38,653 bases of DNA from Gammaproteobacteria bacterium (GTDB lineage: Bacteria > Pseudomonadota > Gammaproteobacteria > Pseudomonadales > JAHFSE01), in contig JAHFSE010000010.1 of NCBI GenBank assembly GCA_023265895.1, positions 7,250 through 45,902 on the forward strand, in the 5' to 3' direction. The stretch's first letter is position 1. Each line of letters begins with the position of its first letter. Below are positions 18,967-19,965 of this stretch, piece after piece. A program made the translations under genes and the position numbers. The notes beneath the pieces were generated by a model, which saw only the letters and a list, made by a program, of their open reading frames with translations, was not told the DNA's origin and did no database searches.

Positions 18967-19965
18967 ATGTATAGAGCTGCTGCTACGAACCTATTTAAAA
19001 CATTCAGCACAATCACTACAGCTGTCTCTCCAAACATAACAAGTGCATTAACGAAGATTCAACCCATCACCGGTCAACGCATGCAAAGCCAAATTGCGCC
19101 CTGCCATTATCCACCCATAAGACTGCCTACTACTGCTATGGCAGCGCCTACTTGGTCATTACCAACACAGGTCACCATTCAAGAAATCAGCCCCATTTTA
19201 CCCAGTGCGGCTAAATTAAATCCGCAAGAAATAACCAGCGTCATAGATCAACTTGCAGAGAGCGGATTAACCTCAATCACTGCATCCTATATACCCACAC
19301 TATCACGCGCATGGATGACACAAAATATTCCACCGGGAATCACACCAACAACACAATTTTTATCATCAAATATTTGCGCCATTTCGACGCCTGTTTCTGC
19401 TTCTAAAATGGGACCTCTAGGGAAAGAACAATACGAACGATTAGAAAAACTGAGAGAATCTTCACGATTGGACCTACCCATACAAGCCGTTATTTCAGAT
19501 ATTTCTAGTGACGAATATCCAGCGGTTTCTATCAAACAGGTAGCTGAGCTGGCTAAACAATTGCGTGATATGGGATTTGAAATCACCTTGGAAATTCCCG
19601 GGGAAGTCAGCGTCGGTGCACTAGCACAATATTTGGAAGCGATCGGGCAACAAACACAGCTACCCGACGCACTCAGAATTTCTAACAGTCACGGTCAAGG
19701 CGTCGCTAATTTATTTTTAGCCTTGCAAATAGGGATTCAAAAATTTGAAAGTTCCATTGCTGGATTAGACAAAATGCTCGCCACTGAAGATCTATTATAT
19801 CAATTACAAGGTTTTGGCATTAAAACAGCGAATCCCATTCATCTACAAACACTCGCAAAACTGAGCCAAACCCTTTCTGCACAACTGGGTGTACCCAATT
19901 ATTCGAGTGTTGCTAATGCACTCAATAACAATAAAATGCCGATCTATAATAAACCAAAAGAATAA
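18967..19965 (+). CDS. HMG-CoA lyase-like protein, catalytically degenerate, with N-terminal extension
   Basis: LPTQVTIQEISP, IDQLAESGL, GQGVANLFLALQIGI..FESSIAGL and LATEDLLYQLQGFGI match HMG-CoA lyase blocks; the RDG, HxH and GGCPY motifs are absent; SD-like GGGGA upstream of the ATG. Confidence 0.75.
   Translation: MYRAAATNLFKTFSTITTAVSPNITSALTKIQPITGQRMQSQIAPCHYPPIRLPTTAMAAPTWSLPTQVTIQEISPILPSAAKLNPQEITSVIDQLAESGLTSITASYIPTLSRAWMTQNIPPGITPTTQFLSSNICAISTPVSASKMGPLGKEQYERLEKLRESSRLDLPIQAVISDISSDEYPAVSIKQVAELAKQLRDMGFEITLEIPGEVSVGALAQYLEAIGQQTQLPDALRISNSHGQGVANLFLALQIGIQKFESSIAGLDKMLATEDLLYQLQGFGIKTANPIHLQTLAKLSQTLSAQLGVPNYSSVANALNNNKMPIYNKPKE

Follow-up and report, generated by a model that had tools for sequence, protein, structure and literature searches.

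A very divergent homologue of HMG-CoA lyase without the catalytic residues of its family in a gammaproteobacterial genome

What keeps a gene open when the enzyme that it resembles has lost its active site is the question raised by an open reading frame (ORF) in a stretch of 38,653 nucleotides of gammaproteobacterial DNA (assembly GCA_023265895.1, contig JAHFSE010000010.1, positions 7,250 to 45,902 of the forward strand), hereafter referred to in its whole length as the window. A preliminary description, made from the letters of the window, had recognized in this ORF a 3-hydroxy-3-methylglutaryl-CoA (HMG-CoA) lyase whose fold motifs are kept and whose catalytic elements are removed, and had proposed as checks a comparison with the HMGL-like family, a structure prediction set against human or Pseudomonas lyase, and a search of the genome for a separate intact lyase. 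In this article, it is reported that the ORF is a real, very divergent HMG-CoA lyase homologue, that it retains the family residue at none of nine active-site positions checked, and that its open frame and in-frame deletions are not explicable by neutral drift. The following features are referred to throughout, with positions counted within the window and the predicted local distance difference test score abbreviated as pLDDT.

18967..19965, + strand: the whole ORF, 332 codons and a stop, an HMG-CoA lyase homologue that appears catalytically dead
19138..19425, + strand: residues 58-153, the eroded N-terminal half of the barrel, with β1-α1-β2 recognizable and a length about 27 residues below the canonical one
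19426..19962, + strand: kept C-terminal half of the barrel (β5-β8) with the auxiliary helical domain, residues 154-332, pLDDT mostly above 90

Homology to HMG-CoA lyase and loss of the active site

The relationship to HMG-CoA lyase, which had been claimed from an alignment by eye, was recovered by profile and sequence searches. The NCBIfam profile NF004283 (HMG-CoA lyase) matches residues 154-321 with an E-value of 1.5e-12, and a phmmer search of the PDB returned human HMGCL (3mp4, E = 9e-12; 2cw6, E = 1.6e-11) and the lyase of Pseudomonas aeruginosa (2ftp, E = 2.8e-10). The ORF nevertheless lies below both curated cut-offs, with 47.3 bits against the 246 of NF004283, and the proposed comparison with Pfam PF00682 (HMGL-like) gave a match (E = 1.9e-5) of 24.7 bits, short of the cut-off of 29.

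The significant lyase-profile score is confined to the C-terminal half of the ORF. Among the sequence blocks named in the preliminary description, those of the C-terminal half (GQGVAN and LATEDLLYQL at their starts) are the very blocks that phmmer aligns to lyases, whereas those of the N-terminal half (LPTQVTIQEISP and IDQLAESGL) fared less well, contributing 1.1 bits to the phmmer alignment and reaching no significance in the profile searches. When residues 58-153 were taken alone in a profile comparison, residues 63-114 were aligned to lyase β1-α1-β2 in collinear order (E = 6e-4, probability 28%), and whole-length MAFFT alignments of the ORF with lyases are collinear as well. Position 19159, at which that description had begun its lyase-like segment, is codon L65, where lyase similarity begins. 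The similarity lies in frame +3 only; a frameshift within the gene was considered and rejected, since no other frame of the gene matches the N-terminal half of the lyase.

According to a review (PMC6941031), Arg41, Glu72, Tyr167, and Cys266 are critical for lyase catalysis, and the metal is bound by Asp42, Asn275, His233, and His235. These eight residues and the Asp of the GDT motif constitute the nine positions checked (canonical pattern RDEYDHHCN), for which an alignment of the ORF with 38 other rows, termed A1, was used. All nine are kept in 26 of the 38 other rows, and both His residues, the Cys, and the Asn in 37 of them; the ORF keeps 0 of 9. The position of Arg41 is occupied by I77 or by a gap and that of Asp42 by a gap (Arg in 36 and Asp in 34 of the 38 other rows), Glu72 corresponds to T105, Tyr167 to V175, and the Asp of the GDT motif to E209. 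The three places at which the most is lost, as judged from the alignments, are given below.

19189..19206, + strand: S75-P76-I77-L78-P79-S80, at the place of GPRDGLQ, with the equivalents of Arg41 and Asp42 gone
19675..19683, + strand: R237-I238-S239, at the place of the metal-binding His233-x-His235
19768..19776, + strand: D268-K269-M270, the remnant of the GGCPY...GASGN loop, with the equivalents of Cys266 and Asn275 gone

The GGCPY loop has been shortened by 9 residues through an in-frame deletion, and Asn275 aligns to M270 in phmmer or to a gap in A1. In humans, a change of His233 to Arg causes disease and abolishes lyase activity. The preliminary claim that the RDG motif, the HxH motif, and the GGCPY loop are lost is thus reproduced by several alignments, with I77 or a gap, R237-I238-S239, and DKM, respectively, in their places. 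Clear homology to an enzyme family together with the loss of its catalytic residues, as expected of a pseudoenzyme, is found here, and the product of the ORF, as read from these alignments, would no longer be able to cleave HMG-CoA.

The search of the host genome returned three matches to PF00682, namely, LeuA on contig C85 (881 bits on NF002087), the ORF itself, and the separate intact lyase sought, which is encoded on contig C114. This C114 lyase is a protein of 301 amino acids with all nine checked residues and 457.5 bits on NF004283 (cut-off 246), its gene adjoins that of a biotin carboxylase/biotin carboxyl carrier protein (BCCP), and the ORF is 31-34% identical to it over the C-terminal half.

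Reading frame, coding signal, and predicted fold

The frame is intact over 332 codons, as had been stated before. In simulations of neutral substitution that started from the C114 lyase gene, the share of frames still open fell from 2.9% at 0.1 substitutions per site to 0.2% at 0.2, and from 0.3 upwards none of 2000 survived; neutral drift to 37% identity should introduce about 10 stops. The frame is also preserved by the deletion of 9 residues from the loop and by a net loss of about 27 residues from the N-terminal half. Read in its own frame, the ORF has a codon score of 0.18, compared with -0.26 and -0.29 for the two alternative forward frames and values between -0.18 and 0.09 for the reverse strand; the score of the C-terminal half (0.29, the 28th percentile of 710 long ORFs) is ordinary for the genome. 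Additionally, hydrophobic residues occupy 81% of 81 family core columns in the ORF, and polar residues occupy 91% of 86 family polar columns, compared with 63±5% and 74±4%, respectively, in neutral simulations of similar identity.

The structure prediction proposed in the preliminary description was made in two ways. The alignment-based AlphaFold2 model (pLDDT 76.8, predicted template modelling score, pTM, 0.73) contains eight strands but no helix 3; the modelling is poor for residues 1-60 and 129-137 (129-137 with pLDDT below 50), and residues 190-320 exceed a pLDDT of 90. Its best Foldseek matches are the human lyase chains 3mp5/3mp4/2cw6 (E of about 5e-17, template modelling (TM) scores 0.65/0.75), and the alignment-free model of the ESM Atlas (pTM 0.72) reaches a TM score of 0.76 to a lyase cluster. 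In both models, a (β/α)8 barrel with a C-terminal auxiliary domain is predicted to be retained. The earlier statement that fold motifs are kept accordingly stands where pLDDT exceeds 90, in the C-terminal half and the auxiliary domain, and does not extend to the N-terminal part, which is eroded.

The open frame, the codon score, the residue pattern, and the predicted fold together indicate that a foldable protein was kept for most of the history of this gene. The reading of the locus as a neutrally decaying pseudogene, which had been rejected in the preliminary description, is likewise rejected here on the basis of the open frame, the in-frame deletions, the 0 of 2000 simulations, and a hydrophobic and polar pattern above the neutral expectation. 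The selection documented in this way is dated to most of the gene's history and does not cover the present.

An actual lyase pseudogene was encountered in a genome of the same order (G041:C14:68874-69281), where, at a distance of about 5 kb from an intact lyase gene, a lyase-like fragment of 145 amino acids is interrupted by two TAA stops; this copy is decaying in the ordinary way.

Present role and alternative explanations

We consider the chances about even that the ORF encodes a lineage-specific, foldable pseudoenzyme that acts by binding, perhaps via its retained dimer surface, paired either with itself or with the active lyase. The dead copy would have been kept because its protein does something by binding, for which the best-preserved part, the C-terminal half-barrel with the auxiliary helical domain that forms the dimer contact in real lyases, would be used; homodimers would form, or heterodimers with the C114 lyase that alter the activity or the stability of that enzyme. 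The preliminary description had argued that a triosephosphate isomerase (TIM) barrel was retained for a non-catalytic role; its premises, the catalytic loss and the non-neutral frame, hold, and the non-catalytic function at present, like the translation of the ORF as a protein, is something that we infer.

The dimer contact of lyases is formed by β9 and helices 11-12 and lies outside the barrel, according to the same review (PMC6941031). The matching region is predicted to be kept in the ORF, with pLDDT above 90. A complex model of residues 58-332 with the C114 lyase scored 0.94, a mark reached by 58 of 80 solved complexes and by 2 of 110 mismatched pairs, and the best of 3 controls scored 0.00; at least 91% of the contacts are shared between runs, and the pLDDT of the partner is at least 80. 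Since lyase homodimers have already been solved, this result may show likeness only. The idea of a partner of the active lyase, also raised in the preliminary description, is therefore favored by the complex model and not by conservation, to which we return among the objections.

Several observations weigh against a present binding role. Conservation at the predicted interface does not exceed that of the remaining protein (11/29 versus 76/220 positions elsewhere, Fisher p = 0.84), the N-terminal half is eroded and its codon score weak (0.11 for residues 58-153, 2nd percentile), and the hydrophobicity test rests on an alignment that is itself optimized for similarity. The gene adjoins neither liu genes nor any obvious partner, a promoter and terminator scan at the ORF found sites no more numerous than in shuffles, and no RNA run is on record for the gene. 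The three metagenome runs that carry the gene do so with identical sequence and hence without polymorphism, and no orthologue was found in any collection searched, so that purifying selection on the present sequence is not measurable. Finally, the terminal branch of the ORF measures 6.4 changes per column, compared with a median of 0.67, a length that also fits relaxed constraint.

The absence of orthologues was established in collections of several kinds. A word-indexed search returned the ORF itself and two canonical lyases at 25-27% identity, and in a HMMER scan of 1.84 billion protein representatives the next best match reached 57 bits and 35% identity over the C-terminal half only. No orthologue was present in the genome contig collection or in the metagenome contig collection, the latter of which gave one weak match of 56 residues (L018). 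The genomes of 60 relatives contain canonical lyases only, without any match reaching residues before 112; across 83 loci (L016-L098), similar sequence occurs only at L018, and the 80 alaS loci among them that come from other lineages (L019-L098) are all without it. A same-genus genome (G001, 68% complete) has no PF00682 match at all, and a different gene sits there after the orthologue of the gene upstream of the dead lyase. The tree does not place the ORF and does not settle whether it descends from the C114 copy, and no donor can be named because the nearest matches mix eukaryotic and bacterial lyases.

The gene at the corresponding place of the same-genus genome (L017, 1571-2479, - strand) is an orphan of 302 amino acids with a Ser-rich N-terminus, a hydrophobic segment, and tandem peptide repeats (NNLQGEYNTLQ twice and NNIAAVAQL twice). 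It is followed by a fragment that, by eye, resembles the end of a succinyl-CoA synthetase alpha subunit.

The first alternative is that the ORF is a non-functional relic, which was long under selection, perhaps in an unsampled lineage, and is now unconstrained without having acquired a stop yet. It would agree with an ORF that is a singleton among the 1.84 billion representatives and is not found in the one same-genus genome, with a terminal branch ten times the median, with the eroded N-terminal half and its weak codon score, and with a genome of only 1.95 Mb. Small genomes of such a kind often carry decaying genes. However, already at 0.3 substitutions per site none of the 2000 neutral runs keeps an open frame, the large deletions preserve the frame, the hydrophobic and polar pattern exceeds the neutral expectation, and the C-terminal half is folded with confidence by two predictors. 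The long terminal branch itself fits a change of function as well as relaxation, and we regard a relic as unlikely.

The second alternative concerns the N-terminal extension, which precedes the lyase-like part and would be a later addition to the lyase scaffold. The relevant features are as follows.

18967..19137, + strand: N-terminal extension, residues 1-57, predicted to be disordered (pLDDT 36-59) and without a hydrophobic signal peptide
18954..18959, + strand: GGGGAA, a Shine-Dalgarno-like purine run read directly from the sequence, ending 7 bases before the ATG at 18967

The extension measures 57-64 residues, depending on whether it is counted to M58 or to L65, from which point alone lyase similarity is found, and it gave no profile match and no usable match in the ESM Atlas. 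The first acidic residue of the ORF is E73; only 8 of 1321 genome ORFs of at least 150 amino acids reach position 72 by this measure, most of the other seven being hydrophobic and membrane-like. Ser and Thr make up 33% of the first 30 residues (99.3rd percentile). The only other acid-free N-terminus of such length in a protein that is not membrane-like belongs to an ORF of 1283 amino acids in the same genome, the first 71 residues of which are rich in Pro, Gln, His, and Tyr and contain no hydrophobic stretch. The purine run provides weak evidence for the first ATG, at 18967, as the start, and no Shine-Dalgarno-like run lies upstream of the internal ATGs M39 (19081) and M58 (19138).

Such an extension could be a type III secretion signal on a dead scaffold, which would be injected into a eukaryotic host and bind a host protein or an acyl-CoA metabolite. 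The same genome encodes an injectisome besides its flagellum: contig C28:1-6451 (L099) carries YscX, a tetratricopeptide repeat (TPR) protein, SctV, a CesT-family chaperone, SctN, and YscO; contig C107:2954-3448 an SctJ-like protein of 262 amino acids; and contig C139:3371-4939 a YscC-type secretin above its cut-off, while the flagellar FlhA-FlhF-FlhG cluster lies on contig C25. The injectisome suggests a host-associated lifestyle for this groundwater bacterium with a genome of about 2 Mb, and its presence makes a secreted effector role possible for the dead lyase. The acid-free, Ser/Thr-rich composition, which we take to resemble that of type III signals, is in line with such a role, as are the lineage-specific occurrence and fast evolution of the ORF and the Ser-rich N-terminus of the orphan at the matching place in the same-genus genome. 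On the other hand, the signal is read from composition alone, the gene adjoins no type III genes or chaperone, the codon score of residues 1-57 (-0.02) is near zero and not gene-like, and no host is known; the start codon is unproven, and a start at M58 would drop the extension and give a canonical lyase N-terminus. A secreted effector is improbable in our judgment, and the same low expectation is attached to the variant in which a protist host receives the protein, which would bind a host partner of HMG-CoA lyase or sequester acyl-CoA. A scan for the Dot/Icm families PF12293 and PF11393 gave no match in the genome and was uninformative, since the controls were equally silent.

It is very unlikely that the protein is still an enzyme, with the barrel rebuilt for a different, metal-independent reaction or for another substrate. 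TIM barrels often change function, and R237, at the place of a metal ligand in the alignment, could bring a positive charge into the former metal site. Nevertheless, none of the nine active-site positions checked is unchanged, two site-shaping loops have been lost by deletion, erosion affects the portion of the barrel that bears half of the site, and no family of relatives shares the new residues. An artefact, that is, a chance ORF or an assembly error, is hardly credible even for a source that is a metagenome-assembled genome of 194 contigs, being contradicted by the significant in-frame homology, by an in-frame codon score far above that of the other five frames, and by the identity of independent contigs.

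Those contigs, from two other runs of the same study, reproduce positions 19075-19692 (618 bases) and 19524-19850 (327 bases) with 0 differences, which shows that the ORF is not an assembly slip. The runs holding the gene carry the label groundwater metagenome, and the host assembly (1.95 Mb in 194 contigs) is 93.7% complete. The GC content of the ORF, overall and at third codon positions (0.33 versus a mean of 0.34), matches that of the genome, and the closest AlaS proteins in named genomes, at 59-65% identity, belong to uncultured gammaproteobacteria. The window itself is gammaproteobacterial core chromosome with fab, lpx, tol-pal, ruv, and aminoacyl-tRNA synthetase genes. On one side, the ORF is flanked by the gene of a signal-peptide protein at 17858..18883, with htpG further upstream, and on the other by a convergent alaS. 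As had been claimed before, no liu genes are nearby: profile scans of all 41 window ORFs of at least 110 amino acids (HtpG and AlaS included) revealed none of liu type. A scan of Rfam gave no match, and a repeat scan found two direct repeats only, of a size expected by chance.

The signal-peptide protein (17858-18883, + strand) has 341 amino acids with an N-terminal hydrophobic leader, and its gene, on the strand of the dead lyase, ends 83 bases before it. The protein has no Pfam or NCBIfam match, and the same-genus genome supplies the sole relative found, an orthologue at 62% identity. Between a Crp-like regulator and htpG, an ORF of 237 amino acids (14950-15663, - strand) is without a Pfam family at E <= 1e-5.

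Comparison with known lyases and pseudoenzymes

A pseudoenzyme that binds through a retained dimer surface, the reading that we prefer, can be set against several known systems. The best match in sequence and fold is HMG-CoA lyase (EC 4.1.3.4; human HMGCL, 2cw6 and 3mp3-3mp5; P. aeruginosa, 2ftp), to which the ORF is collinear from β1 to the C-terminal auxiliary helices, with the GQ..AN and LATEDL blocks kept. It differs in having lost every catalytic and metal residue together with the GGCPY loop, in an N-terminal half that is about 27 residues shorter and preceded by 57-64 additional residues, in missing both curated cut-offs, and in the absence of liu genes nearby. The C114 copy of the same genome differs from the ORF in turn, as it keeps the nine residues, scores 457.5 bits, and is encoded beside a biotin carboxylase/BCCP gene. 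A weak HMGL-like match should not be named a lyase in annotation.

Another lyase homologue without the catalytic set is a Microvirgula protein of 292 amino acids (P0071; e.g., WP_051528595.1), which reads SEARDRMNT at the nine positions. Like the ORF, it has an Arg at the position of His233; unlike the ORF, it has a loop of unchanged length and no additional N-terminal residues, and it reaches 161 bits on NF004283. The two are independent of each other, since the Microvirgula protein is 28% identical to the ORF and 38% to canonical lyase. Its 90% cluster comprises 20 Microvirgula hypothetical proteins, of which the members listed (P0085-P0098) each occur on 1 to 50 contigs, and one source names a member 'pyruvate carboxyltransferase domain-containing protein'. 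The protein is present in many assemblies of Microvirgula. The occurrence of this cluster on many contigs indicates that a dead lyase copy can persist within a genus. A further match, of 439 amino acids (P0080), also lacks the HxH and GGCP motifs in a pattern search; it is named flavin reductase in its source and may be a fusion or a partial match.

Among active lyases, the human HMGCL paralogue HMGCLL1 (er-cHL) has a distinguishing N-terminal sequence that changes its location (PMC3435538 and PMC6941031) and, according to the latter, keeps all catalytic residues and is active. Both HMGCLL1 and the ORF are thus lyase paralogues with a distinctive N-terminus, and the ORF differs in keeping no catalytic residue. 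Well-studied families such as kinases and phosphatases contain many pseudoenzymes, and those of the prozyme type are dead paralogues that pair with the active enzyme, for example the trypanosome S-adenosylmethionine decarboxylase (AdoMetDC) prozyme. By analogy, a pairing over the dimer surface may be proposed for the ORF, although its interface is not preferentially conserved. If the ORF product does pair with the active lyase, it would offer a bacterial case of prozyme-like control over leucine and ketone-body metabolism; should it be injected into a host, it would provide effector biology with a new scaffold and the first effector on the HMG-CoA lyase fold. In the literature searched, outside of which most subscription-journal papers fall, no catalytically dead HMG-CoA lyase homologue was found to be described. 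The weight of the present case is limited because it is a single sequence from one metagenome study. Considered together with the independent Microvirgula protein, it indicates that the lyase fold can lose its whole active site and yet stay as a gene.

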